The notes: generated by a model from the letters alone, not told the origin. Counted from the stretch's first letter, positions 1,303-63,777 are shown. The stretch: DNA of 64,000 bases from Owenia fusiformis (GCA_903813345.2 CAIIXF020000001.1:17298001-17362000), one strand, 5' to 3'. Numbers and translations: made by a program.

Positions 1303-1339
1303 GAACCTGCACCTGCAATGGTGAACAATGTACCATATA

Positions 1340-5906: not shown

Positions 5907-5936
5907 ATGAACACAATCTTATTTGTGCTTTTGATG
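5907..5936 (+). CDS. Exon 1: start of signal peptide ([10 protein letters not shown])
   Basis: ATG at 5907, strong donor GTGAGT at 5937; joins in phase 0 to [13 protein letters not shown], giving a typical signal peptide. Exon 2 has an in-frame stop just upstream (7902), so it needs an upstream exon. Confidence 0.75.
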
Positions 5937-8900
5937 GTGAGTATTGGAATTTTTATTTTTTTAAACAATATGTTAATCGTAGGCATCGTGTTACATAAAC
6001 TTAATAGTTCTTCATCTTATGGTACTCGATATAATTTGCATTGGTTACTCTTTCAGCGGTTGCTAGGGCTGCATCCAAAAATAACGGCGACAAATTTGCA
6101 TAACATTGATTTGTAAAATTCGTTAGGGTGATCTTATTTTTGACGTCTTTTATGTCTTATGATGATGAACGATGTCTATCTCAGTGATCTTTATCGTTTT
6201 GATAATTTCAATTATTTTACATCGACAAATTATTTTAACAAACTACATTGGGACGGGTAAACTACAATTTTGGATCGAATGGGAGCTGGGCTGATGTGGG
6301 AGGGGATCCTGGCGGGAGGGGATCAATTTATAAAGTATATACACATATCTGTACACTTGCGACCACATATATTTGCTTGCGACATTACGAAGACAGGACT
6401 TTATATAACACAACATGCAAACAATATCGATGAGCGTATCAAGTATATATGGAAAATTGGAAATTAAAGATGTTGATAACAGATGGGAAAACCACGATGC
6501 AATTTTAATCTTCTATATGGTGTTGTAAGTACATGAATCATGTTCAGTTCAAAGGACAACAATTCACTGAAATCAAAAGGACGATGGGCACCTTAACCTG
6601 CAAATCCAAACATTAACGCAACTTGTTCAGTATAATACCCTGACTGATCTCCATTCTAGAACGTTTGTTTATCCTTTTACGTGTTTAAACTTACATGAAT
6701 TAAAGACCAACCCATATGTGTGTTCTGTTTGCCGAATCTCGTTAACTCAGTAAAAGATTGAATAAGTGAGCTTGTAGCTTACTCGGGATGAGTAAATACT
6801 TGAGATTCCGTTTCGGGAAAATTTTTAGGTATCAAAGGTGTTAGTATAATATATGATTTAACATTTTGCTGTAAAACTATTTGTTTTGCCCACCATGTGT
6901 CGTTTGCCGCCCTCTGTACCAAAGTATTCACACGTTGGCGAATGTTGAGCCAATATACGGTCTAATGTAACAGCTCCATAACAAGGAAGTACAGTCACTT
7001 TTTACATTACAATTGCTAGGTTTTTTTGGCTAAAATTCATAAATGCAAATAGTTGTGTTTCTTGGGGGGCCCCCTTTCTTGTCTGTCTATCACATTAGAA
7101 TCGTAACAAAGACCTCGATTAAATAATTTATGTCAAATATAGGACCTTTTTTAACAATGAACAGAATCAAATTGTCGGTCATATACTACACCATGAATTA
7201 TAAAATCTCGGTCTTTTTTCCTTAATTATAGATTTTTACTTTGCAAAATTATTTATTCAATTTTTAGGTTAGAAACTGTGTTTTGCCTCCGCTCCCCCAT
7301 TTTCGATATTTCTTTTCTTCAAAGATTCGACCAAACAACTAAACCAGATTTACCAAATCTCGAGCTCTAGAAAAGATAACTACCCATGTTTTTTGTCCTA
7401 AAAAGCTAGATCCTATATACACCTATCACATTCAATCATTACCCTTTCGGGCTAACATAGCATTACATGTTACTTTTTAATTGAAAAAGAAAAATACACC
7501 AAAAATAGCCCCTATGATACTTTGACCTATACTTGACTCCATTTGACCTACTTTTTGAGATCTTAATACACTTTCCTCGAGAGTTTGGAATGACCTATAA
7601 TACGGTACCTCGGTTTTTACTCAATCTCTTCAACTTTGGAAACGCCAAGGGAGGGAGGAGGGGGGTGGGTCATCAGTCCAATAGTGTTATGAAAAATACG
7701 TTGTACACATTAGGGTGGTTGAATTGAATGATCTCTCCCAACGTCGTATTGTGGATTTTTAATTTAGCATCTATTCTCTTTTTTTGCTTCGGCCGAGCCA
7801 TTGATGCGCGCGCACTAAGAAATCGGGTCGTTTCACTTGATTTAAACGAACAATGTCAAATACCGACCTAGGCCATATGTGGATTTTTAATTTGACAATT
7901 GTAACTTATTCTTCACTTCAAGGTCATTGGAACCACAAGAGGAGATGGTCGATTTGAACTGAAAATGTTGAGTTACAACAACACCGAAGGCCTAGATATA
8001 TCTGAAAGCTGCTGTGATAAGCCCTGTGATGGAACTACAAGTTGCGATCATATCTTTACTGTGTGTATCTCGTCGTCTAGGTAAGTAAATAGGAGATGTT
8101 TTGCTGTCACAGCAAGTTAGTTACAAATGCAATTGCTATTCTTGGTAACATTAACGTAGTTTATTGTACATCATTATCCGTCCATGTCATAATTAACCCC
8201 TAGAGGATAAATTGAAAAAATAAATCATAGTTTTAATCATATTTTTTTGTCGATTATTTTGCCAATTTAGTAGTAATTTAAAGCAGTTTGTTGTTGGTCT
8301 TGATCTTTTCTGGAATACTCGTTTTTTATCATCACTGTCTGTCCGTTCTTCCATCCATCCATTGGTCCATTCAACATCACCTATGGACAGATGGGAACTG
8401 CCTACTATCTAAATTCTCATTTTCATTTACGAGAGTTTATACTCGTAATTTGGTTGTGTCATTTTAAGCAAATTCCCCAATAATCATCTTATACTTAGTG
8501 TATTAAGTATAACATGAAGCGAAAAAAGTAGATAGCATTGAAATGTGAACATATGAACTTGAATGGCACAATAACGTTTCAATACAACGTTCATCAAAAT
8601 GAAGAAGACAATTTTACATAAGAATTAATATGGTTTGACAATCGATGGCATCGTATAATCCATGAGTTTGGAACACATATATAGTAGTTGGAATAAGTCG
8701 CAAGTAATATTTAGTCTTAATCATAATTAGTGTTTAAATGAATTTTGGAATATTTTTATTTTTACACAATAAACCCCTGGGGATGAAAGGATTAATTAAA
8801 ATGTGTAGACACAGGGGCTCCGTTATCTTATCTGATCAATATTTCTGACAACCGCCGCTTTCCATTGGTGTATTCAAGCCCAGGGACAAAACTGCTCTTT

Positions 8901-11900
8901 CTTTTGTCACCCGTTTGCTCAACCATATAGTAATAATTAATGATTGATTTTGTTGTTGCAGTAATCATGATTGTGATTTGATTGAGTATTCCGTGGGACC
9001 ATTCGACAGCAAGGATTTCGTTTCCGAGGACGATTTCAACGAAAACCCGGATGCTTCTAAAATAGTTACATTTGAAAAGTGGAATGTAAGTTTTTATTTT
9101 TTATTTTAAATTTACATGAGTATAACAATGGGCAAGCTTAAGAAAAACTAGATGTATTAACATAAATCATTAAAATCGATTTAGAATTTTAATAATAATT
9201 TAAATGTATGTGCATTGTTAGAAAAGATTGTCCAAAATCGGTTGCGCTAATTTCCCTCCTCCTTTATGATTATTATTTAATTTCGCGCTATACATTTAAT
9301 AGGATATCGCGATACCTGCTATCTTTGGAAGCACATAGGTTCAGTTGGAGATAAGTTGAAAAATTGTTTATCCTGATTAGGTTTCATCTGAAAGAGACTA
9401 AACGCCCATAATATTGTGACTCTATATGAATATATATTGGGGATTGGCTTAGGTACCTAAGGTATGTTGGCTTAGGTACATACCTGTATATACAACACCC
9501 ACTCGTTCCTATTATTCACACAACTTCCTAATTTGCCAGACATTTACTTGGAACAAATCCAAGGACAATTGAAACTGAAAAAATGTGATCAAAAGATTAT
9601 ACCATAATGAAAAGACTACACAATTAATTTCCATTAAACTTATGTTTAAACATAAACGTCATTTGCCGTAAACTCTAAAAGAGTGTAACATCTTTTTGCA
9701 GTCACACCCAATTTTTATAGTATTTTTTTTAATATTGAATAATATAATGAATAACACATACTAATACAATGAATAAAGGTAAAAATATTGCTTTACGCCA
9801 TATTATCCGAGAATATACTTTTAAGTATAAATATAAATATTTGTCATATATGATAATGCATTGAATATCAACCATACAACCACTTTCAAAATTCGGATAG
9901 TCATAAACCAATGCAGCTAATATATTTTGAATAAGAATACTACTTCACAATAGTATAGTCTGGATGTTTTTGTCTCAGACGACGCATACTGGAGCCCAGA
10001 ATGAGGACAATGAAAAGTAATTATGAAGTAAAGTTGGGATCACAAATTCAGAAATTGATCAATATCATTTACATTCACGATGACAAACAAATGACACAAA
10101 TGACAACAAATAATCAGGAAGAAAGCAAAATTTAAATCACTATATTGTAAAAAGATAAATATTCAAGCAGTTATCATGACCCAGTATTCATGGCCTTGGA
10201 ACCAGGAGTTTATATTTTTAATTTATAAACCATTATAAAATTACCCTTTCGATTCACTTAAGCGGTTAATAGATCAAGACACTTCATGTCATCTCTAGGG
10301 AATGTAATACATATCCAAAGGTATTTCAACTGAAGATTCAGATCTCAAAATTAATGCCGTGTAAATATGTAATAAATTTTCATTTTGATCTGCCTATTTC
10401 AATGCATCATAGCTTGCGATTTATTAACATTGAAAGTTGAATTTCGATAAAATAATGAACATTAAGATGAAACATTGGTGAAAAATAGATGACTAGAAAT
10501 CCTAAATTACCCACAGTAAGGCACTCAAGTACACTTCTTAACATTGCGTGGAACACTGCGATTGGAGCCCTTGAGATTTTGACCTATGGGACCCCATGGA
10601 ACCTTGTGGAATATGGGATGTTGCCCCGATATGTCCCAAAAAGTCAATTTCCTCACGAGGCAGACACAAATAGTCAAATAGAATCATACCAAATCATATG
10701 ACGTTCCACAGAAACAATGTTCGTTGTACTCATGTACCATAGCCACGAGGGTATAGTTGGTAATCGAGACTGCATGATATATCCATGTCCTGATGAACTA
10801 GATGAATCTAAATTAAACTTCATAGGGTACTTAAGGGCCGTTTAGTGTACATAAATAAAAAAGAAAACATCTATAATGAAAACAAATTCCAACTATCCCA
10901 AATCATAATTCAACATGAGTTGAAACAGTGTCTAATATCACCCCACCTTTCCACCATACCAATATCACAATCCGAAACCATAACACCAAGGGACATTTCA
11001 TTCATACTAAATTACAACTGTTTACGACTAATAATTAACTTTTTTCAGGGAGAAATATATATAAAGATAACCGTTTCTGACGATGATACAGCAATTGATA
11101 CAGAAGTTGATACTCTGCAAGATATCTATACTCTGGCCAATGCTTCGGCAATAGGCCAGAGTCAGATTGAGCAAGTGGATGTTACAGGTACAAGGGCTGT
11201 TTCTCCAACTAGGTGAGTAAGCCTTATTTTTAAGTACGTTTTTTTTATTTAAGCAATTCATTACGGGCTTTGTCCTATTTGGGCATTATAGCCAAAAGGG
11301 GACATGCCATTAAGAGGCCATTCTCTGACTTAGTCATGTTTTCAAAAGTGTGAAAATAAAAATATTCATGAAAAGTTCTTAAAATATTCTGAATAACAAG
11401 TTGAATATATATATTTAATGATGGCACAAGCAAGTCTGAAAATTAACATGAAATGAAGGGTTTTGACAGATGCAAAAGATGGTAGATTTGTGATGAAGAA
11501 ATAGAGGTTTTTGCAGTAACAACACAATTACCTCGAATTTATCGGTTATGAGAGACTGAGGACTAAACTTGACATAATTTTCAATCTCAGATTATCAGTA
11601 GTATCTAACTTAAGCCGGACAGCCACTCAAAATATATATGGAGCCCATAAGATTCATTTTTCTCAATTGAAGTCACTATTTCTGTTTTTAGCTTCAGAGG
11701 ATAGGAGGTACATGAACATGCTAAGTTTACCTAGATCACAAGCCTTACCACAAATATAAAGTATATAAGAATAGAGTTGATATGTGTGAAAACCTTAAAC
11801 TTCCCATTTTATTGGGGATGGAACTTGTGGACCATGTGTATTTCTAACTTCTTCACATGTGCATGGATCCAAAATTGTGGCAGCCATCTTGGATTTGTCA

Positions 11901-14900
11901 TATTATGTGGACATGGTTTTGGTTGTGCTGAATTTGTTTCAAAATAACATTTCTTGTATACCTTCGATAAGTGAGATAAGCATTTGAAATTAAATACAGA
12001 TAGTACACTTGACATTTAATGCAGTAAACAGTAATACAATTCATTCTTACATAATAAGTGAGTCCAGACAAAAAGTTATTATTGTGTTAGTTTAACTGGG
12101 CATAAATTACACTCATTGGCCTTGGTTTTCTTAATTGGCTTGGATAAAATGTTGTTCTGTTTATTCAGAAAAGGAGTATAGTTCAATATACAAGTTCACA
12201 TTCGTTCCATCCTCTTTTAGCTTCAGAGGATAGGAGGTACATGAACATGCTAAGTTTACCTAGAACACAAGCCTTACCACAAATATAAAGTATATAAGAA
12301 TAGAGTTGATATGTGTGAAAACCTTAAACTTCCCATTTTATTGGGGATGGAACTTGTGGACCATGTGTATTTCTAACTTCTTCACATGTGCATGGATCCA
12401 AAATTGTGGCAGCCATCTTGGATTTGTCATATTATGTGGACATGGTTTTGGTTGTGCTGAATTTGTTTCAAAATAACATTTCTTGTATACCTTCGATAAG
12501 TGAGATAAGCATTTGAAATTAAATACAGATAGTATACTTGACATTTAATGCAGTAAACAGTAATACAATTCATTCTTACATAATAAGTGAGTCCAGACAA
12601 AAAGTTATTATTGTGTTAGTTTAACTGGGCATAAATTACACTCATTGGCCTTGGTTTTCTTAATTGGCTTGGATAAAATGTTGTTCTGTTTATTCAGAAA
12701 AGGAGTATAGTTCAATATACAAGTTCACATTCGTTCCATCCTCTTGTAGAAATGAATCTCATTTTATTTCATCTCAAATATAGAACACAAAAATATATTT
12801 CTATTAATTGCAAAAGTTAGCTTCTATGTTATGACTGAGTTTGGGTTCCGCTTCTAGGGAAAAAATATTCATCTGGAAATATCGTATTGACCATTGCTAT
12901 ACACTCCATATTTAATCCTCCCAGTAAATAACATTGATATACAGTATACAAGTATATATGACATCGAGGATCTGGGTTATGTGAGACATGAGGCCACTTG
13001 TCTTTTTGAATCTCATATTCAATATTCTTTCTTAAACCCTCATATTTAATATTTTTGGAGTGGTAATTCAATTATGTACCTATTTTTTATTCTTTATCCC
13101 ATAGTTGAACTCTGTTCCGCTCTGTTAGGTAACATGAAAACATATTTATGATATTTTGCAAATGCGTGGAAAAAGTGATATCTGTGGAATACGGAAAATA
13201 TTTCACAGATATCACCTTTTGGCAGGGATTTGAAAACTGACCACCAATATGATGTGTTTTGTTACATAGTGATTTCATGACATCACGGGGATGAATGAAT
13301 GAATGGATGTTGTTTTGATATGCTTTGTTTAGTTTTAGAGGTGAACTATGGGAAAAATAAAACATCCTATGAATTTTCGTGATATTGTGTTAATCTAACT
13401 CATTGATATCAATATCTGCGCTAATTCGCTATGCTAACTTGGCAAGATATTGATATCGACTCGGAGATAAAGATAAAATCATTTAAAATCATATGATATC
13501 CTATACATATCCTTTACTGTGCCACAACTTTCTCATATGTTATATATTTTGGCACAGGCCATCATTTATTTTCCGTGAATTCATGCTTTTGTTCCTCTTT
13601 TAGAAATGAGAGGAAATCTTTGAGTTTCCTTGTATTTAAGTTGCTTAAATGTCGCCCTGTGATGTTGATAAAAGTCAATAGTAATCCATTACAGTCACAG
13701 TTGAAATGTACCCATTGCTAGCCCAGAAACTACCAAAATAGCATTTGCATTTTGTCAATATTGCCCTATGTGCTTTTCCATGAAAATAATTTTAATCGTA
13801 TCTTTTCTTCAGTATATCATATATTACATTTTAATATATTTAAATTGGTTGATATTTATGTACTATTTACTTAGACAACAATAAATAAAGATTTTTTTGT
13901 AAAAACACCAAAAATGGTATATGATCTTTAAATGACTGTTGTGTGAACATCAAAGGTCAAACTTCGCTGAAATTGTATTTTTATAAAGCACAAATGATTT
14001 TTCTTCAATATGATATGCATTATTATCAGATATCTTTGGGGGCTAAAAAGGGCCCTTAATGACACCCGTCCTTTAACAAAGTACAATAGGCAAATAAGTT
14101 CCCAGTTGACATTCTTTGCTTCCCATGTGTGACATTCTCAGAAATATAAGCTCATACCGGTCACTGATGGCCATCTCCAGATATTTGCAGCTTAGCATGA
14201 ATTTGGACCTTTTAAAGGTAGTAGAATGGAAAGAAATGATTTGTGAGTCAACGACGACGTTGCAAAAGTTTCTTTTTGCATAACATACAACAGTTCTGAT
14301 TTTCCCAAAGGAGTATGAACATATTTGACTAAAGCCAAAAACTTTATTCAGATATGTTTATGATACTGGACTCATTTGAAAAAATCATAAAATTAAAGTA
14401 GAACTTTCTTTGAATGAAAATCCTATAAAAAAACTCCAAATTACCTATTAGTATGTTGCTTTCATCTTCAATATTTCCATTCACCCTCGTAGCATTGCTA
14501 ATGCCAAATCACACACGTGTCATTGTGGAGACAATCGTGAAACCACTTCAATTTTCACATTCCAACACACTCAGCAAACAATATTCTGGACTGAACTTGA
14601 AATAAATCCATCTCTCAAAACCCAAAACACTGAGAGCAAAAACTACCTTATAGAGCCTCGGACATGAATATTCCAAAGAAAATTATTTTTGAAAAACTGT
14701 AAATATTGTTGTTATGGATTGAACATTGAATCGTTATAACTACCTAGTATTTTGTGAGTTATGAAAACATATCTTTAGAACCAATCAACACATTTTTTAC
14801 ATGTACTATAAGAAATGTAATATATTAATAAGACATGGTATCATATCAAATTATTCATTTATAAAATAATATTAACATTACTTTTAAAAATTTTCAAAGT

Positions 14901-17900
14901 GATATATTTTGATATCCGCATTTATTGGAAAATTAACATACGAATTCCTTCATATAACTAAATAAGGTGTAATACTGTCTAAAGAAATAAAGCAACGGAT
15001 TTAAATTGGATTCCTTTCATTTTTTATTTACATGTAGCCTTCATTGAATTTACAAGCCAAAGTAGTTTGAAACTCATAAGTTGCGGTGTGACCCTTTGAA
15101 TTGAAACAATTGAAACAAGTATTGAAAAAGTGAACACTCGTGTATACGTACTTCTCTCTGATTTTCTATATTAAACTGCACTCTGATTTAAGAGTTTGAA
15201 ACACTTACTATAATGTTATGTGTCAATATGGTAATACAAATCATCAATGACATATGGCATCTCGAGTTGACAGTGTTTCGGGGAATAAACTTTGCTAGAA
15301 TTATTAAAAGTGCAACAGGTATTCACCTCAATAGTATAGATATTTGTATAGTATTCCTAGCAAATATTTCAGACCTTGACTTTTGACACCAAATCTGTAA
15401 GCTCAATGCATGGCGCCTCGTTACAAACTATGTAGTTTCACATAACTATTTTGTGCCCTTTATTGAATATCTAAATATTACGTTAAAAGCTAGCAGTCTT
15501 TACACAATAGACTATATCACGGGATACTAGAGTATCCGCGTATATTGAGTATGACCGGTTCTTAGGCTACGAATATGACCTGTTTTGGAAAGTCATGAGA
15601 GGCACAGCTGCTTAAAAATGAAAAATAAAGGTTAACTTCTATATTATCCTTTTTGAAATTGTGTTTGTTGAATATAGTTTATGCTGTATTTAATAGTAAT
15701 GTAACAATAAAATGTTAAACATGAGCTATTTTAGCAATGTAACTGTTCATAATGGAATATCAATCAGAAAGTACAGATTTCTCGCCTTAGAGCCAAATCA
15801 TTAATATCACAGTAGAAAAAAACAAATCCCAAACCTTTTTATGGCTAACCTGAACAAGATCTCCAAATCTCAGTTTATATGATCCCCCGTAGAGTGAGCA
15901 AGAGAAGGATTTATCTTTTCCCAGAGGATACGCTTGTGAAATGTCATGGAAACGAGTGTAACACGGCCCACTGATTGATGTGATCGGAATGTTACCGGTG
16001 TAGAATACGAGTGTATGTATTGAGAGCACCTAAACTCTCCATTATGGTACCCCATTCTGATACTCAAACCATCTCTGCTATGCACAAGAATATGCTCTAG
16101 AAGGACACTGAGAGAAGGCTGTGATATCTCACGATGATGGTACCCTCGAACGTGATCGTTCAAGGTGTCCTTGCTTTTATAAATCTTGCCACACTGATCG
16201 CATTCAAAAACATCATAAACAGAGGTGTGCTTTCTGGACATATGCCTTGTAAGACTATTTTTGTGTGTGGTGTTAAATTCACACAACGCGCACAACAGTA
16301 TCTTGCGTTTTGTGGCATTGGGATCGCTAGTACCAATCAGCTGTTGAACACCTTTATAATATGTTTATATTTTCAAATACATGATAAACTTTTCTTTCCA
16401 TACATTGTAATGTATTGGTATAAAACCTGTCTTAATATATTACTGAAATTCGATAAAAATGTTCTAAAAGCATATTTTGCCATTACTTTCGCCAACATTC
16501 TGAAATCGGGTCAACTGATTTAACCACAAATCTACAAAAGGTCTGAAATGGGACAACATAATTATAATCAAACAAGGCTATTGTTTTCGGTCTACGTTTA
16601 ACTGAATTCTTTTGGAAAAAATAGGCTCTTGACACTATAAGTCATCTACTCTTATTTAGTTCTTCCCACTTTATATTGGAGACCTACTGCAAGCGTCTGA
16701 AGAGCCTCAACATTCTGGTATTTCGAATTACCTTTTGCATCTGTCACCGCTAAAAGTCGTATCCAAACACCGGTTAAATGCCGATCCAAGACATTTCACA
16801 ACCGTATTCTCCAATAATGGGGCACCAGTGACATTCGTATTCTCAAAAATTCAAAGATGTATCATATTTGGACAGAGCAGGCTAAATTATTTAAAATATT
16901 CATGACTAATTCGTAGATCTAGCTATATATTATACATAAGATGTGTCATCCTCTTCGGAGTTGCGTTGTGTTACACAAAAACTGATCAAAGATGCTGGAA
17001 ACTAGGATTTTACGGCTTCAATCTAATGTTAATACGTTTTCTCTTGATTAAGGCCCCTTGTGATATGCCTGGCATTATAAGTATACCAAGTATCATTCAT
17101 TGACCAAGTAGGATAAAAAGAAAACGTTCGAAAGTGTTCATAAAAAGCAAGTACTCACCTCGTATGTTTATAGGAACAGAAATACGGTCACACTCGTAAG
17201 CTTAGAACCGGTCATACTCAATATACGCGGATACTCTAGTTACCCGTGCTATATCATGAAAGGTGATCGATCGAATCAAATATTTTAAGTTGGAAGGGGA
17301 TAAGAAAAGACATAAAGGATAGAGAGTGTAAATTATCGAAAGCAATATATTTTAAATGTCATGCCTAATCCCTCACAATACTTAATATTTTATTAAATGA
17401 CAAAAACTGATATACCAGATCAAATGTGTAGCATGATAAACAGTGAGAAAGCGGCCATATCTGAAACTAATCGAGGAAAAATAGCGGTGAAAAAATGCGC
17501 CCTGATTTCATTGAATACGTTTTCAATTTAAGCGAGTTCACCACCACCACCCCAAAATTCTCAAGGGATTAGCATAAACATGTCATATAGTTTGAGATTA
17601 TGACACGATGTCTTCGTTTCAGCATAAAATATATCATATATCTTGTGACTCTAGCTTGTTTAATCTGATCATGGAATTCTACGAGTACATCCACATATAA
17701 AAATTATACTTGTAGTATAAGAATATGACTTGCGTCATATGGAAGAAAATATAATAAATAATATTTTACTTTGTCTAATCTAAGCCTACTTACTCCCTCC
17801 AAGTTTTGGTGTAAACGGATTTATCTTTTACTGCATAGATCAAAAGTACATGTACATGTACCTGGTATGTCACATTTTATTCACATTTGCAGCAACGATT

Positions 17901-53900: not shown

Positions 53901-56900
53901 ATTATATGCTTTTAGGAATAGCGTGTTTAGAATCCAGTTTAAAGTTTACGTGAATAATACCCAGATAGATGGCACCACTGCTATAGGTTTCAATGCAACA
54001 TGTGTTTCTAATGCCCTGACCAAATTCAACCTCAGTGGAATATTGGACAAGGCTTCAAAGGTAATGTCCAACTCTGAATATGCGAATACTTAACTTATAT
54101 ACTGTTTATATTGGGTTTGGTTTTCATAATCCGGAAAGAGAAGATAAAGAATTTCCTCTAAATGGTCATCAGAATGTAAAACGTTTAGAAGTTAGATAGA
54201 GAGAAGAAAAAACAATTATAAAGGCACAAGCAGTGAGAGGGAGAGATACTAGCTAGCAATTAACCACATAATCATCTATCCATGTTATGCTCTTTCTTCT
54301 TGTTTTACCCGATGTAAGCAATATTTCAATATATAGACTTCATCTCGTAACTAAAACTGATCACTTTATACCTAAAGAACCTAAAAGCAGTCTCGGTTGA
54401 TGAAACTTCTCTACGACTGGTTGAGAAGTCACATAGAGTAGTGCTTGAAGGAACTGCTGTACACTCAAAGGAAGACATAGATGAGGTTGCAGAATCAATT
54501 CTAGATAAGCTAAATGCATTAACAGGTACACATAGATCTTTGAAGAATGACCAATGACATTCAGCAAAGCAATGTAATCCTCCGTCGATGTTGCTAACTA
54601 GAACAGTTCAAAAAGAAAATAATAAATATACTTTTGTTTAATCGAAACTGAAAAATTCATAGTATTCCCTTCGATTGATGTTTAAATGAATTAAAGTGTT
54701 TCATAACTCAATGAACTGATAAAATTGTAATACCACTCAATTCCATATCAACTATAGGCTTGCACAACTGCACGAGTGCAATGTATTTGTCATAAATATA
54801 CATGTCTAATATACTATATTTTAGCTGGTACTGAAGCTCAGATCATAATTTCACAAGTTCAACAACTTATAAACACAATTAATGGGTATGTATTATCAAA
54901 CCAGGAAACGTCAAACCTTGCATCATCAATAACATATTCACTATAAAATCTCTGAGATTTAATTCCCCATGCCCAAGATAAAAAAAATACAGTACAGATA
55001 ACTTAGGTAATACTTTTACTTACTGTAATGTAATGTTCTCAATCAAGGAGTATTCAGTTATTCACAAAATAACATTTTATTTCAGAGATAAGTATGTGGG
55101 ATTGGTATTCTATATTGTCAAGAAAGGTACGGAAAATCAGTATGTGAATGTGAGCCAATATGAGGTCCTTAATGCATTAGAAGAAGGGGGTATTTCTTTG
55201 GACACTTCATCACTTGACCTGGTGAACGAACGATATCTTTTCAATGAGATATTCACCAAGCAAGAATTGACAACCGACGTCTTACAGTTGTTTACTAACG
55301 AAATGAAAGCTCAGCTTATTTTGAATAACCCTGGTACGTGTTAAGTATTATTCTGGCTTATAAATATTCTGGCTATAAAGTAACAATCGTCGAATGCAAA
55401 ACTCAAATGTTTTGGCTGCACTAAACGCTTGTTATCAGCTACTTAGGTTTTGACAGTCTTTAATCCGACATGTACGAGGAAGAAACATATAGCTATATAT
55501 TCGGTTTTGTAGGTATTAATTTCACAAATGCACTGAGTGTAGATGTAGTGATAAATGAAGAAGTGATTACAACAAACAGGTACAGACATATTTCCATGGG
55601 ATCTTTAAAAATGTAACATTTCATTTGGAACGGCAATATTAAGTATATTCGAAGGAAACACATTTCCACATGTTTAGAAATATATAGCTAATATAAAGTA
55701 TGTGATTGTAATATCCATCATAGTAACAATTAATGAACAAAAAATAACTGTTGAATGACTTATTTGTGTATCGTAATTGTGGATTTAAGTTCACATAAAA
55801 AGCATGTGATATTATTTTCTCATATTACATGTAAGTTAACATATACCATATGCAGTATTTTATGTAGATGCTATTTTGTTTTACAGGGAGACCTACTACA
55901 GGATTGTCTACATAGTGCGAGACGGTGATATAAAATACAACTATTTGACATTGTCGCCGGTTACATCACTTGAAATCACTTTTGGGAACAATACATATTC
56001 TCTGATACAGCTCAGATCGAGTTCAAGTCCAACCCGTATGGTTGCTTTAAAGCGATTTGATAGATTGTCAGTCTTTGTAGATCAGTTTGTTGTTGCGCAA
56101 CATTGGTCCAAATTTGAAGAGGCTTTTAGGATTACATTTGAAAAGATAATTGAAGCAGGTAAAGTGTATTTTCTACTTAATTAGTCCATAATCCTTACAT
56201 AACACCATTCAATTATTCCAAAGAATCATTGTGATGTAGTTAGTAGTATAGTGTATCAGTCAGGCAGAGTTATGGTGTGCAATCATGCTCCAAAGTTGTC
56301 CAGCTCCATATTGGTCTATTAATTTTTATATGCTGCTACATATTATTTTTACATTTCAGAATATGGAGATATCCTAGAAATGATGAAACTGGAAGTAAGA
56401 ATTATGCATCAGGAGAAATGGCTTGGAATCCTGCAAGGGTCAGTATATAGTAAATATTGACGCTTTTTCAACTTTTATTTGTTTTGTATGTATCTCCATT
56501 GCATACTTACACATTTTTTATATATTACCCTCAATAGAGCATACAGGACTTTTTGATAGAGGAGGGTACAAATTGGTATTTTTACATTCGAATAAGAACT
56601 GATTTTAATTGAAATGTTCAAACAAAGCTCTTAACCTGACTCTGATGAAAATTGCTGGAATTTATTGTAATTGTGTGTGATGTTAACTATTACTAGAAAT
56701 TGCATCAAATTGGATTGATCTAGCCATGTTCAATGGGCGTTTCTAAAGCATCGGTTTTATTGTAGAGACTTTTGGGAATTGGCATGCCTGATTCGGCTTA
56801 ATGGTATGAGGTTAAATCCTTTGCTACTCCCAAAGTTAACAGTGAACTTCGTCAAAGAGTTCCAAGAATACTTGTTGATCACATCAGTTAAGAAAACAGA

Positions 56901-59900
56901 TTACAAGATTCTGTTGGAAGACATCACTACACATATTCGGGCAAGGACGACATACAGCTTCTTTCTAAAAGAGAAGATTAAACTATCTGATAAGGCTGTG
57001 ATTATCGATGCACTTAGGATGTATTTTAAAACAGGTATGGTGAACCTAAATCATTTTTACATAAAGTAATACATAACAACAAACTAAATAACAATTGAAA
57101 GTTACGAAACAAAATAACAAATGAATAACATCAAAATTAATACAGCTGTAATTCGGTAAATGATGCTATTACATGTAATTATCAATTTTATAAGGTGTAG
57201 TAACGCAATGCACAAATTAAGCAAAATATACCCCGAACTTATAAAAGACAAAATCCAGAAAATACATCGATTTTACAGATACATTTTAATTTGTTTTCCA
57301 GATTTCACCTTAACTGTTGATGTTACATTTGTTCGACAATACGAGAGAATAAAACTAGGATCTAATGGGTAAATATTATAATAATGTATCATCGAGTTGC
57401 TAATGAAACTTAGTTCTGATTGCCTATGAAGGAGCCAGAGGCATTTAAAACACTGTCATTATATGTCTCCGAGAACAGACATCTTTGAAATGTAAACACT
57501 TGATATACGTCCAATGGATGTAATGTACATATAAGTGGAAATGATGAGGCATAAAATAAACCACGAATCCTTCCGATATAATATGACAATTTACCTACGC
57601 CTATTCAAATGCAATGTTATAATTGTTATTTGATTTTGTATTGAAGCCTAGAAACCCAGATTGAAGTGATTGTCTCGGTGACTTCCAACAAAAGGGCCAT
57701 CAATACTGGATTCTTCAGGAAGATCACCTACACAGCCCTTCGAAACATACTTGATATCACTATCAGTGGCTCCTCCTCGACGTACTCCTCCTTATTACTG
57801 GACGTAGATATCAGCGCTGATACAAGGCTTGGGTTGTCGATTACATCAGACTCATTGTTTTCAATTGTATTGTCAGAATTCGACGTTGATGTCGATTCTT
57901 CATCAGTTATTGATATCTTAAAACAAACATTCGTTCGAACGAATACAAGTAAGTCTGTGCTTTATTCAACTGTAAGTTTTGAAGGTAAAACGAAGTAAAG
58001 ATATACGGTCGAGGTATACTATAAGTTTTACTAGTATTAATAGACATTACTAAGATAAACATGGATGCGCCTCATTAACAGTTATGTTTGAATATTTCAT
58101 CACAGCATTAAAAAAACTTTTTGTGTCTTGTTGCATTTCAGCTAATCACTTTGTATGATTTATGTCATACCAACTTTACTTTGTAGAATATTCACTAGAT
58201 GAACTACAAATCAAGCTTCTGAAACCGAAAACGATTATTACCAAATCTGGGTAAGATTTTGTAAAATATGTATTGGCTGGGTGGGTAGTACATAAGTAGT
58301 GTGACAATAGTATAAGTTGTACAAACCTGATATTGCAAATGAGATGTCGATTTTGCGCCATACTTAATGCACGTGTATTGTTTTCAGACTGACTGTCACT
58401 AAGCTTGAGTTTGCTGTTGTTGTTGACGGAAAGCTGATTTCATCCATTAACTTCCCTGATGTAGATTTCGACGTAGCAAGAACCATCATAGAAGAAAGAC
58501 AAATAAGTATCAAGGTCTTGGATGTTGACATAAGTACTAGCATTGAAACCACATCAACACGCTCTGTAACCTTCACTGAGAAGATTGATATTACCAAGAA
58601 ATTAGTAGTAGAAGAAAAACTCACTCAGTATTATAAGGAACTTGTTGGGGAAAAAGGTATGTGTACGATACAGAATAATATACTGCTAAGAATGTATTCT
58701 ATCCGAAGAAACATCATAGCTGTACATGTTCACTCTTCAAGATGATGGAATGACTGATTCAGCTGATCTTAAATGTACATGTAAGGATACATTTAAACGA
58801 ATCTAAATAAATTATGTTTAAAGTAATGTATCTTTTAACATAACAAGCATTTTTACTTTATATTTTACGTCTTGTAGATACGGAGCTAAAGGCATGTTTA
58901 AAGGTTGAGTTTACCAATAGTGTTGGCAGTCTTGTAGATAACACCCTGGGGTAAGTTTAATGGAAGCAGTCGGTGAACATGTAAAGTTTAGGTTAGATAT
59001 ACTGTGACATGATTAATTAACATACATGATTGAATTGACTGGCACATATAGCAAAGTAAATTCTAAGCACAATATGATAGCAAAATGAGGATATATGAAA
59101 TTCGACAAAAAGCAAATTCATTTATGCCATTTGAATCATTCAATTATGTAAGATATGATTGAGTTCATTTTGACTTTTCAGCACCAATTTGTTTGAGTTT
59201 AACTATGCTCTTAAGTGCAATGGAAAGGTAGTTGAGCCAGACGTTTTGCCAGACGTGGATCAAAAAGCAATCATTGATTTGTTGACAAAAATCAAAGTGG
59301 AAAAAGGAATCGATATAACTGTTGTGGACACTACAAAGCTCAAACTTGTTGACATTACAAAGGTCCTCACATTCACCAGTAAGAAAGTGATCGCCATTGA
59401 AAAATACGAGAAAATCAAAACTGCTATAAAGAATGTCATCCAGAATACAGGTACACGTAGCATTATTACATGTATGTATATTTGTTGAACTAGATTATAC
59501 AAAATGTACAGTTTGGTAGAACAATGTAAAATAGTGACTCATGATTGGTATAACAACTGACATTGCAGAAGTATATTATAAAATCAATATCTAGGTAGAA
59601 TAACTACGTGCAAATCGAAATCCAAATTACAAACAAAAAATATAACTTTTTTCGTAAAAAATATATTTCCTATTATTCTAGGAATAACAGTGGATTTTGA
59701 TGTTGTCATTGTTAGTCAAAAGGAAGTGATTACAACGGAGGGGTAGGTTCTTACATCTTGCTTTTCTCTAATAGGCATGTGTATTGAAATACATCTTATT
59801 TTCCTACATATATCATATTTTGGTTTGTTCATTTCATTCTTTTTTAAGATATGATATTATAAGTTGTGATAGAGAGGTTGTTATAGCTACTTAAGATTAT

Positions 59901-62900
59901 GTATTATTGTACGAGAGTGTACTAGTTTAAAGGTAATGCGTTACAGCTCGGCATGGACCCTTAGCTACACCCTCAGTGATGTATCGTTACTGGATCAAGT
60001 GTCCATCTCAGCTGTGAAACTGCAACAAGAGTTTGAATCACTCGCTGTGGATATCGAAATTGTGACCCTTGTTGAGAAGTTTCTTCAAGTAGAGCAACAG
60101 TTTAGAGTGTTTGTTAATGAAATTATTCGCACAGATGACCTTGCTATCCTTCAAGGAGCAATAAAGGAAACATGGCTTCAGTCTGATCAGAGTAAGTAAT
60201 CAATGTAATGTTTAGTTCATTCATCACATTTGTACAGTATACATTTTAATTGTATTTACTCTTCACTTAGACATATAACGTTGATGCCGAGATTTAATGC
60301 CTATGAATATAAACATTTAATTACAAAAATATGATTTTCATTTCTATTTTGTAGGTTTCACTAGTCTTGGAGTTGAATTACGATTTACACCTGTTGAAGA
60401 ATACTTCAAGACCGATGGGTATGCACTGTTATTCCTTATGGTCTATATCATCCCTAAATTAGATTCATTACTCTCCACTCACTAAGATTTGTATGAATGT
60501 CAGACACATCATTACAAATACGCGTTTTCATTGTTTTGGCAAACAATTCTAACTTTATTAAACATGAATACGTTTTTTTCTAAGATATGGGATCTTATTT
60601 TCTGTATACTTTACCGGGAGATAAATAATAAGCACTTTATCAGTGGCCCTTATCAGTCACTAATGCTAAATAGAATTCCCCATTTGTTATACATCGTATG
60701 AGCTTTAGGATGATAAATATATATTTACATCATCAATTTAATTTACAGACTTAATGGTCTTCTAAATTGGGTCAACATTCAAAAATTAAATAATTTCCTT
60801 TAGCAGTCAAACAATTTTGAGCAATTAAGTGACCAACCGACATTATGATAAATTATTTTAACTCCTGTTCTTTTTATCCTTCAGAACACCAGTGTTCCTA
60901 TTATCATACTGTCTGTGGTTGAATGATGTAATGCTGGATCCTGCTGTAATACGAGGGCCTTCCCTGATAGCCTTCAACACAAAGATTAAACAAGTCTTGT
61001 CCACATTTAAACGTGACTACACATATACTTTAGAAGTCGAGCGTGGATTTGTCCGCCGTGCCTTTACTTCTGAGGTGTACATATCTGTTTCTCTAAAAGA
61101 TGAAAGTGTAGTTGAATTTGAAACAGCCATGTCTATGTTCTTGAAAACTTTACTGGGTAGGTTTATTTGGATTAACTAAATACAATCAAATGGTGAAGAG
61201 CATGAATACAATACATTTTATGAACATTATTGTTTAGGATCTAGTCTTTTTAGACAACATTTGAAGGCAAATAAATATAACTTGCTATTGCTGAAGTACC
61301 GATCTTTTAAAGTTTTTTTTGTATTTGTAATTCTGTATATTTCAGCTGATGATGATATCAAGGTAAAAATTACAACCCAGATAGCGTTACTTAGAACGAA
61401 TGGGTAAGATTAACATGAATACTATATTAATCAGGCTATTAAGTCACCTTAAACAATTGCGTGATTAAAAGATACGAGCATGTATTTATTTAAACATTGT
61501 AATGTACTAATTGTATATTATGTTTCGTTAATAGAAACAATCTGTATTATTTAGATAAAAATACACATTACGCGTTTGAAAAGTGAAACATTGAAGTAAC
61601 TACACTATCAGAATAAAACAAACATTAGAAAATATTCATCTTTATATTTACTCTTCATCAGGGCATCTGTGAATCACCTTCTCTACACCATAAACAGAGA
61701 TAAGGATGGCAAACTGATCACAATGAATCCTGATATATACAGAACAATTACAATAGACGAGTTGAAACAAGCCGTGATAAATGTGACGATCACTGGGGGT
61801 ATTTCCCTAAAGCAGGCAATATTGAAAAGATCAGATTTGGGAGACCTATTTGACTTGAAATCTCTCTTCACTCTGACATTTACAGAGGATTTCACCTTGG
61901 GAGAGAGTCAACTCATCGCTGCTATCTCCTCTGCTATAAATGGTAGGATTCTCACGTATGATAAAGTAATTTGATTCAATGCCTTGAAACTCTGAAACTA
62001 TTCTATATACAATTACAAGGCTCCTGTACTGCTCATAAAATGAAATAGTAGCAAATACGTTTTACCGAAAGTTTACTTTATATAGACATACGATATATGA
62101 TGAAAAAATGATTAGAAATGTATTATGAAGATTTTTTGTTTTCAGAAAGTAATATTGATGTGACAATCCTAAAGTTAGAAGAAACAATAACAGTGATTGG
62201 GTGAGATATATAATTATGCTTCAAATCAATTTCACACAATTCTTCAGATGTTAGGCCAATTGTTCAGTTCCAGTATTCTCACTCTAACGTATTTATCCAA
62301 GCCGTGATTAACTTGTTATTTTCATTTCGTATTATCTATTTTTATTTTTATATCGTTTTTCATTATTGATTAGAATTTGTTAATTATTATCAAGACTATG
62401 AAGTTATGCTTTTGAGTATTATACATGAATACCATTTGATCTGCATACTGCAAGCGTTATTTCTTACTTTGTCCTTTAAAGAACATACATAGAAATAATA
62501 TTTTCAGGTCAAGGACAAAGAAATTGTTCTTCACAATAACTATTGATGGGGACAATGTCGACTCTAGAACTAAACCGGATAACTTCATAAACATTGAGCT
62601 AATCAAGCAGTACCTCTTGGGTATCAATGCAGATGGTGGTCTTGTAGATGATGCTACATTGGATGTAGAAATTGAGTTTACTATAGCATTCCGAGGCAAG
62701 ATTATGCCAATTGATATAACAGCTGTGGAGGTTATTTTAAGAATGTACCATGCATCTGTTGTGACAGGATATGAAGAGTCTTGTGTTACTTCTCAGATTG
62801 TTTCTCAGGATCTTGTTGCAGATAGACAGTAAGTATGATATGACCCCTTGTAACTCAGTAATTTTAAACAACGCATCTAAACATGTGACATCCAAATGAT

Positions 62901-63777
62901 ATCATATATGACAAAATTTAAGTGTAGACAGAAGATATGTTTTTTTATATTTTAGTCGCAAGTTGAACAGAGTGAGGTACACTGTTGGCTGTGGAGACAT
63001 GAAGATTACACCTGATTCACAGACTAGAATCACATTTGAAACATTGCATGAGAACTTTGTAAAGGCTGGGTCAATATACGAGCCTATCGATATAAATGGA
63101 TTGGAACTCATCTCTATTGATAGATTGTTCTCAATCTACGTTGACAGTATTGTTGATATTCATGAACACCTGCCAAAGCTGATTCTAAGATCTATGAAGA
63201 GCACTTACATTGGTATGCGATTCACTGAAATTTGTTGGTACTTTTCTGAAATAGTTCAATATGTAATAACAATAATTGAATATGTGACATGAATAATGTT
63301 GCTTTCAATGACATTGCCTTGCAGAATAAACAGGCAAAGAAGAATTATAAATATCTAAGCACGGGTGCCAAAAGTTGCAATGAAACCTAGCAAGAAAAAA
63401 GCTCTCGGTGTTGACCAGTCATAAGAAATACAAACCAAACCCCACATAACACGAAACAATGATCGAGCTTAAAAAAACAATGTATAATACCCCTTCCCCC
63501 ACGCCATTCAAGGCCATAACACTAAGGGTTATTTCTTTCAAAGTGAAGTCATTAAAATACAAGTTGAAGAAAAAATTTGAAATTTATAGGCAATACTCAA
63601 CTTCAAAAACCGAATATGAAAATATAATATTTAAACATTGAATTGTGTCATTGGGGATCACTCATTGTGGAAAATGTGTCAAGAATCTCACAGACATACA
63701 CAATGTTTTATTTGCATTCCAGATCTACAGGATGCTTCGTTTTCAATTAGCTTACACTTCATAGAATCCTACACCAA
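5907..63777 (+). CDS. Giant multi-exon Delta/Serrate-like extracellular protein: SP-MNNL(C2)-DSL-2xEGF-DSL-4xEGF-DSL-split EGF/beta-barrel-Ser/Met repeats-(>=38 SEA-like domains); 3' end lies beyond the window
   Basis: About 91 exons joined manually at GT-AG sites; the phase of every junction is consistent (~16,410 nt, ~5,470 aa). Domain motifs are listed in the sub-features. Confidence 0.85.
7923..11212 (+). CDS. Exons 2-4: MNNL / C2-like N-terminal domain of Notch ligands
   Basis: Exons 7923-8080, 8962-9085, 11049-11212: [43 protein letters not shown]...[18 protein letters not shown]. This matches the Delta/Jagged pattern G.FEL.....N..G......CC....C...F.VC...F.WPG.F.LII. Confidence 0.85.
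11686..12745. repeat. Recent tandem duplication, 529-bp unit x2
   Basis: TTTTAGCTTCAGAGGATAGGAGG...CGTTCCATCCTCTT repeated with a 529-bp offset; I saw only ~2 substitutions; the duplicated ORFs at 11809 and 12338 are also 529 apart. Confidence 0.95.
13087..13505 (-). mobile_element. Hairpin/sub-terminal-IR non-autonomous repeat, same family as 43309-43720
   Basis: CCCATAGTTGAAC (~13098) is inverted with GTGAACTATGGG (~13341), followed by the palindrome CATCCTATGA...TCATATGATATCCTATA; the layout mirrors 43309-43720. Confidence 0.55.
15518..17248 (-). mobile_element. DNA transposon derivative with ~60-bp TIRs (CACGGG...CCCGTG), 6-bp TSD, carrying C2H2 zinc-finger coding sequence
   Basis: CACGGGATACTAGAGTATCCGCGTATATTGAGTATGACCGGTTCT is mirrored at ~17205-17248; CTATAT lies at 15512-15517 and 17249-17254. 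Confidence 0.85.
15870..16350 (-). pseudogene. C2H2 zinc-finger coding fragment inside the transposon
   Basis: [22 protein letters not shown] and [24 protein letters not shown] are two canonical C2H2 fingers; the frame extends to a possible acceptor near 16350; the downstream part looks degenerate. Confidence 0.7.
18263..20065 (+). CDS. Exons 5-7: DSL domain 1, EGF1 and Ca-binding EGF2
   Basis: Exons 18263-18456, 18658-18723, 19948-20065: [64 protein letters not shown]...[28 protein letters not shown]. Confidence 0.9.
20453..22282 (+). CDS. Exons 8-12: DSL domain 2 and EGF3-6
   Basis: Exons 20453-20649, 20867-21046, 21262-21341, 21947-22106, 22254-22282: [44 protein letters not shown], then four EGF repeats including [19 protein letters not shown]. 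Confidence 0.9.
21512..21880 (+). mobile_element. tRNA-derived SINE with a 57-bp duplication spanning its 5' end
   Basis: A-box-like TGGCCGAGAGG, B-box-like GTTCGAGAC, tRNA-Leu-like head (GTCGAGTTGGCCGAG...TTCAAG), CTAGA-type tail at ~21860-21880; 21512-21568 is repeated at 21569-21625. Confidence 0.7.
22547..22939 (+). CDS. Exons 13-14: DSL domain 3
   Basis: Exons 22547-22640 and 22865-22939: [56 protein letters not shown]. Too short for the ORF track. Confidence 0.9.
23129..23440 (+). CDS. Exon 15: 104-aa Cys-free all-beta (avidin/lipocalin-like barrel?) domain, symmetric phase 1-1 exon
   Basis: [37 protein letters not shown]...[20 protein letters not shown]-x-W-x-G start and alternating beta-strand pattern; 312 nt between AG and GT. 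Confidence 0.7.
23668..25339 (+). CDS. Exon 16: truncated EGF end, Ser/Met/Glu/Asp-rich repeats, Ser/Pro/Thr linker and start of the first SEA-like domain
   Basis: 1672-nt exon containing ORF 23766-25343; acceptor TTGTAG at 23667, donor GG|GTAAGA at 25340. Confidence 0.9.
24072..24810 (+). repeat. Coding minisatellite, 111-bp (37-aa) unit, 6 full copies plus 1 partial
   Basis: [37 protein letters not shown] repeated; GCAATC.GATGAAATAA recurs every 111 bp. Confidence 0.95.
25575..33763 (+). CDS. SEA-like repeat units 1-10 (long/short exon pairs)
   Basis: 25575-25852/26087-26144; 26299-26561/26904-26955; 27060-27322/27681-27795; 28087-28373/28570-28633; 28869-29149/29524-29575; 29795-30045/30335-30392; 30693-30852+31123-31234/31589-31643; 31857-32119/32425-32494; 32659-32979 (fused); 33194-33441/33706-33763. 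All phase-consistent. Confidence 0.85.
35070..35646. mobile_element. Kolobok-like palindromic MITE (TTAA TSD, AGG...CCT ends)
   Basis: TTAA|AGGAACATTCCTGGCCAAACC ... GGTCTGGCCAGGAATATTCCT|TTAA, with long internal inverted similarity (GGAAGTGATGTCATCGACTCT / AGAGTCGATGACATCACTTCC). Confidence 0.8.
35792..36404. mobile_element. Tc1/mariner-type MITE (TA TSD, ~190-bp imperfect TIRs)
   Basis: TA|CAGGGTATTTCATAT ... ATATGAAACACCCTG|TA; internal GATTGCAAAGTTTCAGAATC is mirrored by GATTCTGAAACTTTGCAATC. Confidence 0.8.
36410..37840. repeat. Foldback-like element: ~130-bp inverted arms around a degenerate ~60-bp tandem array that switches orientation
   Basis: 36412-36540 is inverted with ~37715-37840; units like GTATGCCCTGGTTGTGCTTTAATAACCCCTATTGGTTCC at 36560-37400, and reverse-complement units at ~37440-37700. 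Confidence 0.7.
40038..50294 (+). CDS. SEA-like repeat units 11-22
   Basis: 40038-40327/40615-40675; 41098-41390/41669-41729; 41905-42170/42333-42393; 42610-42884/43130-43193; 43739-44010/44225-44288; 44465-44748/44959-45031; 45129-45406/45620-45674; 46567-46838; 47060-47380 (short+long fused)/47564-47621; 47858-48126/48739-48802; 49039-49328/49497-49563; 49650-49939/50240-50294. Confidence 0.85.
41490..41660 (+). repeat. Degenerate ~35-40-bp intronic minisatellite
   Basis: TATG(C/T)(A/T)AG(A/G)TTCxxTTTGCAGA repeated about 4-5 times. Confidence 0.6.
43309..43720 (+). mobile_element. Hairpin/sub-terminal-IR non-autonomous repeat
   Basis: Palindrome ATCCTATGATTTT...GCGAAGCG...AAAATCATAGGAT (43315-43445), IR TTATCCTACACTTA / TAAGTGTAGGATAA, and three copies of GGAGTATATCGT.AC.ATATCCTCCG. 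Confidence 0.6.
45714..46290 (+). mobile_element. Helentron/HINE (DINE-1/pearl-like) non-autonomous element
   Basis: 5' TATGTCACCAC/GTGGTGACATA hairpin, GGCGTCC/GGTTGGT microsatellite-like block, three ~120-bp tandem core repeats (AAATCATCTACATGTTCTCAGAAGTTCAAATCTGACTTT), 3' GGTGGTGATAT sub-TIR. Confidence 0.7.
48311..48695. mobile_element. Small inverted-repeat element (MITE-like), family unclear
   Basis: Perfect 21-bp IR CCAAGGAGGATTGGCTCCCAG (48355-48375) / 48641-48661; ACCTAG...CTAGGT outer ends; GCGCAG...CTGCGC hairpin near the right end. Confidence 0.55.
50443..63777 (+). CDS. SEA-like repeat units 23-38 (continues past the window)
   Basis: 50443-50717/50967-51033; 51198-51472/51681-51753; 51967-52235/52476-52536; 52884-53173/53527-53581; 53916-54060+54378-54525/54825-54885; 55086-55333/55513-55579; 55887-56158/56360-56438; 56766-57034/57302-57368; 57647-57948/58187-58250; 58388-58656/58878-58950; 59182-59450/59682-59742; 59947-60191/60355-60418; 60885-61156/61346-61403; 61662-61942/62146-62200; 62508-62828 (fused); 62956-63212/63723-63777. 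Confidence 0.85.

Follow-up and report, generated by a model that had tools for sequence, protein, structure and literature searches.

A probable giant DSL-headed protein of Owenia fusiformis on a long array of unnamed repeats

A window of 64,000 nucleotides (nt) from the annelid Owenia fusiformis (GCA_903813345.2, CAIIXF020000001.1:17298001-17362000) was analysed, and its plus strand between 5907 and 63777, counted from the first nucleotide of the window, probably covers the first 58 kb, from the 5' end, of one protein-coding gene. The predicted product opens with a signal peptide and a head of the Notch-ligand type, passes through an unnamed domain and a Ser/Met-rich tract, and then enters an array of units of about 110 amino acids (aa). 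In the best reading of the data, the gene is a member of an undescribed lophotrochozoan family of giant, mucin-like type I membrane proteins. Among DSL proteins as a wider class it represents a variant not described before, carried on a new repeat domain. An initial annotation of this DNA had called the protein possibly undescribed, and indeed the architecture was not described in the literature found by full-text search; supplementary gene lists may contain members.

The exon chain and its Notch-ligand-type head

The window is AT-rich (31–38% G+C per 2-kb step) and consists of short open frames between stop-rich stretches, as expected for an intron-rich animal gene. The model was rebuilt independently from a Pfam scan of 10 head open reading frames (ORFs), a repeat profile iterated over six-frame ORFs, and the reading of splice sites. 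It comprises 90 exons with AG/GT at every border, which join to 16,307 nt and give an uninterrupted frame of 5,435 codons; the introns have a median length of 235 nt and range from 86 to 7,050. This is close to what the initial annotation had proposed, namely about 91 phase-consistent exons encoding more than 5,400 aa with no end inside the window; the array runs to the last exon, which stops at a donor site. The control was a small chain finder scoring codon usage and splice sites, which gave 1,844 bits and 89 exons on the plus strand, 162 bits on the minus strand and 18–27 bits for three locally shuffled copies, a comparison that is partly circular because these exons had also served to train the finder. 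Of its 89 exons on the plus strand, 82 coincide exactly with exons of the 90-exon manual model. When extra exons were penalised only lightly, a looser search placed some 40 further mini-exons of low score in long introns and broke up the Cys-rich head exons; these were rejected, and exons were chosen by phase, profile and relatives.

The head follows the order signal peptide, MNNL/C2, DSL1, one EGF, DSL2, about four EGF-type modules and DSL3. Exon 1 (5907-5936) carries the ATG and the first 10 codons of the predicted signal peptide; the N-terminus is hydrophobic, and its start aligns with those of relatives from the molluscs Patella and Saccostrea (described below). MNNL/C2 is spread over exon 2 (7923-8080), where Pfam MNNL is matched within ORF 7905-8081 (E 8.3e-7; 29.1 bits, cut-off 22.5), exon 3 (8962-9085; acceptor phase 2, donor phase 0), which holds the middle part, and exon 4 (11049-11212), which holds the last. 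The latter two were placed by splice phases and by alignment to the Patella protein, residues 11-240 of which align with model residues 7-258 at E 1e-25. DSL1 lies in exon 5 (18263-18456) and DSL2 in exon 7 (20453-20649), and both match Pfam DSL (ORF 18114-18467, E 3e-11; ORF 20367-20789, E 6.4e-12). Among solved structures, DSL1 matches Jagged-2, Jagged-1, DLL1 and DLL4 chains (E 5e-11 to 2.5e-5) and DSL2 a Jagged-1 chain (E 1.6e-8), with Delta and Serrate fragments also among the significant matches of DSL1/DSL2. DSL3 is split in two. Its first half in exon 12 (22547-22640) is 41% identical to the DSL of a Potamilus relative and matches a DLL1 chain at E 0.009, and its C-terminal half in exon 13 (22865-22939; ORF 22828-22968) covers Pfam DSL positions 29-46 at 21.6 bits, under the cut-off of 24.2; once joined, DSL3 shows 47% identity (E 1e-12) to the Pfam-positive DSL of the Potamilus relative.

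EGF-type Pfam matches occur in ORFs 19908-20066, 20800-21072, 21243-21392 and 21908-22123. The corresponding exons are exon 6 (19948-20065; EGF, E 3.6e-7), exon 8 (20867-21046), whose Cys-rich EGF-type modules give weak matches to EGF, hEGF and EGF_TEN, all below cut-off, exon 9 (21262-21341), which encodes part of an EGF, and exon 10 (21947-22106), with an EGF (E 1.3e-7) and the start of an EGF of the calcium-binding type (EGF_CA, 25.0 bits, cut-off 27). Exon 11 (22254-22282) has only 29 nt, and was placed by chain search and by the phase required to close the EGF and restore the frame. Two of the 10 head ORFs scanned, 8948-9106 and 23107-23445, matched no Pfam family. A Delta/Jagged-type head with signal peptide, MNNL/C2, DSL and EGF, as initially annotated, is therefore present by Pfam MNNL, DSL and EGF matches, and three DSLs can be counted in it.

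Likeness to the canonical Delta, Serrate and Jagged ligands extends to the order of the modules, signal peptide, MNNL/C2, DSL and EGF, but not much further. Canonical ligands have one DSL and a length of about 700–1,400 aa, whereas the window protein has three DSLs and more than 5,400 aa, several times larger; its Ser-rich tract and its array of over 4,000 aa are both absent from canonical ligands. According to the available part of PMC5356439, canonical ligands continue with at least 7–9 EGFs, followed by a membrane helix and an intracellular domain; in the window protein about five EGF-type modules are followed by more than 4,700 aa of other sequence, and there is no clear Delta/Jagged-type EGF1-2. 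In single-exon scans, the Pfam models for these first two EGFs (EGF_DL_JAG and JAG1-like_EGF2) reached E 0.2 only, and that in a single exon not placed after a DSL.

The binding face of the DSL is also altered. In Jagged-1, residues F199, R201, R203 and F207, together with D205 in a figure legend, form a conserved DSL face required for both trans-activation and cis-inhibition, as given in the available part of PMC3415683, which cites Cordle et al. 2008 for this face. At those five positions DSL1 has Q, T, E, H and E (none kept), DSL2 has Y, V, Q, T and S (none kept, with one F-to-Y change) and DSL3 has E, T, H, D and A (one kept). The position of Jagged-1 F206 is a Cys in all three window DSLs and in those of Potamilus, Patella and Saccostrea, and a further Cys occurs 8–12 residues past the sixth Cys in the window DSLs and in the mollusc relatives. 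An extra disulphide between these two Cys may be predicted from the sequences, giving an '8-Cys DSL'. Since the residues of the binding face are replaced, canonical Notch activation is doubtful, and another binding mode may be possible. The ligand-like head claimed in the initial annotation thus stands as a fold, by DSL homology, and is doubtful as a function.

It could still be argued that the protein functions as a Notch ligand or as a cis-inhibitor, in which the stalk sets the reach or the transmission of force: MNNL/C2, DSL and EGF are arranged as in ligands, and solved chains of Jagged, DLL, Delta and Serrate are matched significantly. A tail motif of the NPxY type, which is linked with endocytosis, is present in relatives and could drive it. 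With the five Jagged-1 face positions mostly replaced in all three DSLs, a Cys at F206, and Pfam models for the first two ligand EGFs that are barely approached, this seems improbable; moreover, at least 38 folded units and a tract of some 480 residues would place the head far beyond the normal gap between cells. Somewhat more improbable still is a related idea, that the C2-DSL tip engages Notch or another EGF-repeat receptor over at least 100 nm, as a long-reach or force-gauging form of DSL signalling.

The linker, the repeat array and the SEA question

Between head and array lie two exons. Exon 14 (23129-23440, plus strand) encodes a 103-aa domain, here called X, which has a W-x-G motif and no Pfam family, and which aligns after the DSL in the Potamilus, Patella and Saccostrea proteins, so that its position is conserved in three mollusc relatives. 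It could be guessed that X is a small beta-barrel binding domain. Protein-atlas scores for X were highest for unnamed bacterial clusters (0.93), followed by OAA-lectin (0.88) and avidin (0.84), and are not usable as evidence. Exon 15 (23668-25339, 1,672 nt, plus strand) encodes a degenerate EGF-like Cys motif, then the Ser/Met-rich tract of about 480 residues, and ends with a helix-plus-strand stretch that resembles the close of a repeat unit. A module of the head type is therefore physically tied to sequence of the array type within one exon. The tract is 27% Ser, 13% Met and 10% Glu over residues 641-1100, is also rich in Asp and poor in Pro, and includes a 111-nt unit in 6.7 tandem copies at 24071-24811, all of which bears out the Ser/Met repeat tract of the initial annotation.

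The array was delimited with a profile started from eleven obvious repeat ORFs and iterated over the ORFs of the window in all six frames. At convergence it contained 34 ORFs, every one of them on the plus strand and none on the minus strand, and in the spliced model it finds 39 stretches, 34 of them at E<0.01. The array amounts to 38 units with a mean of 112 aa, in addition to the repeat-like end of exon 15, and so matches the earlier count of at least 38 tandem domains of about 110 aa. Its exons follow a phase rule. All 34 large exons have a phase-2 acceptor (AG, with one base left to complete a codon) and 32 of the 34 have a phase-1 GT donor, and because of these phases the large exons cannot be joined directly to each other. 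Small exons of 52–79 nt, with complementary phases and a common strand-like peptide motif, are found in nearly every interval. The usual cassette is then a large exon, in phase 2 and out phase 1, followed by a small exon of about 60 nt, in phase 1 and out phase 2. As the whole cassette begins and ends in phase 2, its gain, loss or skipping would keep the reading frame. Exceptions are units 7 and 27, where the large exon is split, units 9 and 37, where both parts are in one exon of 321 nt, and 47060-47380, where the small part of unit 18 is fused to the large exon of unit 19. The units are only 8–26% identical to a reference unit, and are therefore old duplicates.

The initial annotation had called these units SEA-like, and this found no support in Pfam, in the scan of family members, in the PDB or in structure comparison. 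None of 10 window units scored above the cut-off of any Pfam family, and none matched SEA (PF01390); about 20 units from each of the Potamilus, Patella and Saccostrea relatives likewise gave no Pfam match to SEA. When 140 family members were scanned singly at E<=10, no Pfam family was common to more than two of them, and SEA was not among the families listed. The repeat profile gave four weak and unrelated matches against all PDB sequences. The autoproteolysis motif of SEA domains is of the G/SVVV type, and the pattern G-[ST]-[VIL]x3 does not occur in the 5,435-aa model or in the Potamilus and Patella proteins. The repeat may thus best be taken as an unnamed alpha/beta extracellular domain of about 110 aa, for which there is no Pfam model.

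Structure prediction adds some detail. In a model built from a three-unit query (protein P0005), the first unit alone was confident, with a predicted local distance difference test (pLDDT) of about 90 against a mean of 63, because MAFFT had stacked all rows onto the first unit, and Foldseek with the whole three-unit model returned meaningless long alignments only. A model of a single unit with its preceding strand (P0101) has two clear helices and a long hairpin formed by the strand of the preceding small exon and the first strand of the large exon, with central strands and a C-terminal strand that are poorly formed. No structural match was found for the unit models. In the P0101 model the small-exon strand has as its partner the first strand of the large exon that follows, and not the preceding unit. 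Taken with the two exons in which a small part is fused to the following large part (47060-47380 and 57647-57984), this suggests that the structural unit may be offset from the cassette. The top protein-atlas score of the repeat unit, 0.82 for A2M_recep (bMG10), is not usable as evidence.

There remains the view that the units are divergent SEA domains and the protein a membrane mucin of the MUC16 type that gained a DSL head. SEA domains have a beta-alpha-beta-beta-alpha-beta sandwich topology, with which the order of strands and helices in the AlphaFold models would be compatible if one extra N-terminal strand is allowed. MUC16-type mucins also share the general plan, that is, a low-complexity Ser-rich tract and dozens of tandem units of about 110 aa, and the relatives of the window protein have a membrane helix and a short tail as well. 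Nevertheless, the window protein shows no SEA signature in the tests above and no cleavage motif, its short tract precedes the array on the N-terminal side, and its tip is a DSL module, which leaves this view unlikely, and the preferred reading remains that of an unnamed domain.

The units are located as follows, all on the plus strand, with the large exon given first and the small exon second. Unit 1 is at 25575-25852 and 26087-26144, unit 2 at 26299-26561 and 26904-26955, unit 3 at 27060-27322 and 27726-27795, unit 4 at 28087-28373 and 28579-28633, unit 5 at 28869-29149 and 29524-29575, and unit 6 at 29795-30045 and 30335-30392. Unit 7, with its extra intron in the large exon, comprises 30693-30852, 31123-31234 and 31589-31643; it is followed by unit 8 at 31857-32119 and 32425-32494, by the single fused exon of unit 9 (32659-32979), and by unit 10 at 33194-33441 and 33706-33763, after which there is an intron of 6.3 kb. 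Beyond this intron are unit 11 (40038-40327 and 40615-40675), unit 12 (41098-41390 and 41669-41729), unit 13 (41905-42170 and 42333-42393), unit 14 (42610-42884 and 43130-43193), unit 15 (43739-44010 and 44225-44288), unit 16 (44465-44748 and 44959-45031) and unit 17 (45129-45406 and 45620-45674). The large exon of unit 18 is at 46567-46838, and its small part is included in the first exon of unit 19 (47060-47380), which is completed by 47564-47621. Unit 20 lies at 47858-48126 and 48739-48802, unit 21 at 49039-49328 and 49497-49563, unit 22 at 49650-49939 and 50240-50294, unit 23 at 50443-50717 and 50967-51033, unit 24 at 51198-51472 and 51681-51753, unit 25 at 51967-52235 and 52476-52536, and unit 26 at 52884-53152 and 53527-53581. 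Unit 27 again has an extra intron in its large exon (53916-54060, 54378-54525 and 54825-54885). Next come unit 28 (55086-55333 and 55513-55579), unit 29 (55887-56158, within the open frame 55840-56181, and 56360-56438), unit 30 (56766-57034 and 57302-57368), unit 31 (57647-57984 and 58187-58250), unit 32 (58388-58656 and 58878-58950), unit 33 (59182-59450 and 59682-59742), unit 34 (59947-60191 and 60355-60418), unit 35 (60885-61156 and 61346-61403) and unit 36 (61662-61942 and 62146-62200). Unit 37 is the second single fused exon (62508-62828), and unit 38, at 62956-63212 and 63723-63777, ends on a donor site, with the gene continuing past the window.

Relatives, and the case for one gene

A profile of 31 window exons was searched against 1.84 billion representative proteins and matched 207 of them at E<=1e-3, of which 21 reach <=1e-10 and 5 reach <=1e-30. 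All of the named matches that were looked up are from molluscs or from one annelid, and they are labelled hypothetical, uncharacterised or, automatically, 'Delta-like'. Three of the large relatives are mollusc proteins. KAK6195844.1 (A0AAN8KE09; Patella caerulea, 'Delta-like protein') has 3,634 aa with MNNL, DSL and 21 repeat stretches. LOC133190156 (Saccostrea echinata), found by a word search with the head of the Patella protein, has 3,593 aa with MNNL and DSL, and its repeat-like units are visible but were not counted by profile. KAK3591160.1 (Potamilus streckersoni, partial) has 3,590 aa with a DSL and 23 repeat stretches. The annelid relative is from Owenia fusiformis itself, CAH1774350.1 (A0A8S4N0R6), with 3,394 aa comprising 19 EGF stretches, three DSLs, a VWA domain and nine repeat stretches, and a weak match to EGF_Mua-3 below cut-off (E 0.005). 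Shorter, fragmentary members come from Dreissena, Mya, Tegillarca, Mizuhopecten, Haliotis and Gigantopelta. Of other kinds is P0003, a protein of 765 aa with six repeat units and no introns on a metagenome contig of 3,092 nt, which could be transcript-derived or could come from a relative with an intron-poor array. A word-based homologue search with a 571-aa exon returned nothing, its candidates being limited to proteins of 1,001–2,855 aa.

The Patella, Saccostrea and Potamilus proteins share with the window protein the signal peptide (Patella and Saccostrea), MNNL, a DSL with the extra Cys, X, the EGF-like motif, the tract and the array. All four are collinear from the DSL through X, with its common W-x-G, and the EGF-like motif to the start of a Ser/Thr-rich tract, and in the three mollusc models the array follows the tract in the same order as in the window. 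They differ in having one DSL instead of three, with no EGF block between DSLs, in their number of repeats (21–23 stretches for Patella and Potamilus, at least 38 units for the window), and in their tract, which is mucin-like and rich in Thr, Ser and Pro where that of the window is rich in Ser, Met and Glu. CAH1774350.1 resembles the window protein in its three DSLs, many EGFs and the repeat, and its membrane helix and related tail match those of the mollusc relatives, but its 19 EGF stretches and VWA are absent from the window and it has far fewer repeats. Near the C-terminus, the relatives from Potamilus, Patella, Owenia and Saccostrea, and the further members P0006, P0028 and P0050/P0151, have one hydrophobic helix of about 30 residues, followed by a tail of about 50 residues with a common EHFS motif, and with an NPxY-type motif in Potamilus and Saccostrea.

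These relatives bear directly on whether head and array are one gene, as had been claimed initially. The same build is present in the gene models of three molluscs and one annelid, and because the window is collinear with the three molluscs, separate genes would mean that four annotation projects had erred alike; from sequence comparison, a single gene is well supported. The two junctions that link head and stalk, and to which the initial annotation had drawn attention, are both phase-compatible and within the open chain, 23440/23668 in phase 1 and 25339/25575 in phase 2. Two adjacent genes, a short secreted Delta-like gene and a repeat-array gene, might yet have been read as one, as no RNA reads span the linking junctions and the models of other species could carry the same merging error. 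This is very unlikely, however, given that there is no stop, membrane helix or tail between head and array in the open chain, that four models from different species and annotation projects place a DSL head on the array, three of them with the same linking order, and that a Cys-rich EGF-like motif, the tract and a repeat-like end all lie within exon 15.

Several points weigh against the reading of a single, giant membrane protein of a new family. RNA sequencing (RNA-seq) data from the same species, covering about 6% of run X7 and about 12% of run X9, gave a depth of 0–0.28 on the exons within 17856-25849, and none of the 13 RNA joints listed equals a predicted intron, which leaves the linking junctions as predictions. 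Computer predictions also underlie the relatives, all of them gene models, and their local identity to the window protein is low, at 24–47%; none of the proteins listed comes near that of the window, with 47% as the highest local identity. There is no gene end within the window, where the last exon closes on a donor site at 63777, and the membrane anchor therefore lies outside it. For the repeat, the single-unit model is the best one, with a pLDDT of 79, a predicted template modelling score (pTM) of 0.54 and poorly formed central strands. Finally, function is deduced from architecture alone, and any particular function is held with far less confidence than the identity of the gene.

The near-zero depth in portions of two RNA-seq runs, together with large repeat insertions within introns, could also suit a decaying, unexpressed gene copy. 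Such a copy is very unlikely when 16.3 kb of joined exons are open in DNA of 34% G+C, all 90 exons have canonical splice sites, and each unit still matches the family profile although the units are old (8–26% identity). The sequence of the stretch was confirmed in other individuals at 95–99% identity by the two best-matching sequencing runs (X1 and X2), which are genomic DNA, as their contigs run straight across introns (e.g., 22402-23583).

The contigs of these DNA runs also show variation within introns. Intron 4 includes an element of about 1.74 kb at 15511-17253, bounded by 68-nt inverted repeats (15513-15580 and 17186-17253) that are 88% complementary; it has a word depth of 4,000–6,000, is missing from the contigs of both runs (joint 15511/17249), and looks like a polymorphic insertion of a high-copy transposon with terminal inverted repeats. 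In the same intron, contigs of both runs skip 2,775 nt at 11296-14072 and are joined at single-copy depth (about 9). The skipped stretch is high-copy, with an exact direct repeat of 300 nt at 11686-11985 and 12215-12514 (spacing 529), and is a second insertion/deletion polymorphism in intron 4. A repeat-rich and variable spot follows exon 9, where several different deletion joints are seen at 21450-21700, a stretch of depth 6,500–7,400 whose intron sequence includes an exact tandem duplication of 57 nt (21512-21625). The 6.3-kb intron at 33764-40037, in an otherwise regular array, has no profile-positive ORF, and the loose chain search found in it mini-exons of less than 10 bits only; its content is probably repeats.

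Topology, role and significance

By analogy with the relatives, the array would end in one membrane helix, followed by a cytoplasmic tail of about 50 residues with the EHFS motif. The long and probably glycosylated stalk would then display the C2-DSL binding module far from the membrane, and canonical Notch activation would be a less likely role of the protein than coating the surface in the manner of a mucin, mediating adhesion or tethering the apical matrix. The initial annotation had left a choice between a head held far from the cell surface and a secreted matrix, adhesive or mucus protein. Because the relatives end in a membrane helix, a membrane-tethered stalk is likelier than secreted matrix, and the first of these is favoured. 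A lead on the site of action may be a jagged-1-like protein with similarity to mucin, reported in snail mucus in the available part of PMC10475054.

Proteins with a DSL and extra domains have been met before in lophotrochozoans (PMC5356439 and PMC8166818), together with tandem repeats of DSL in bivalves, and were termed 'DSL-like' and set aside in PMC5356439; the available portions of these two papers describe among them no giant array, no Ser-rich tract and no unit of the present kind. A functional analogy may be drawn with nematode MUA-3 and MUP-4 and fly Dumpy, which are likewise type I membrane proteins of very large size that combine EGF modules with long arrays of repeats, but no homology is shown beyond EGF.

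DSL proteins have been studied almost only as short Notch ligands, and here a DSL head is placed on a stalk of more than 5,000 aa, in a family conserved across molluscs and at least one annelid. The family defines a new extracellular repeat domain, with 207 database proteins and no Pfam model, and a distinct DSL subtype with an extra Cys pair and a rebuilt binding face, and its two-exon cassette of symmetric phase illustrates clearly how arrays of this kind can grow. If the tip does engage Notch or a similar receptor at a distance, it would be a long-reach mode of DSL signalling without counterpart in flies or vertebrates. More generally, the family offers an evolutionary-developmental test of the role of the DSL module outside Notch ligands, and a candidate for the large surface or matrix-anchoring glycoproteins of lophotrochozoan epithelia.

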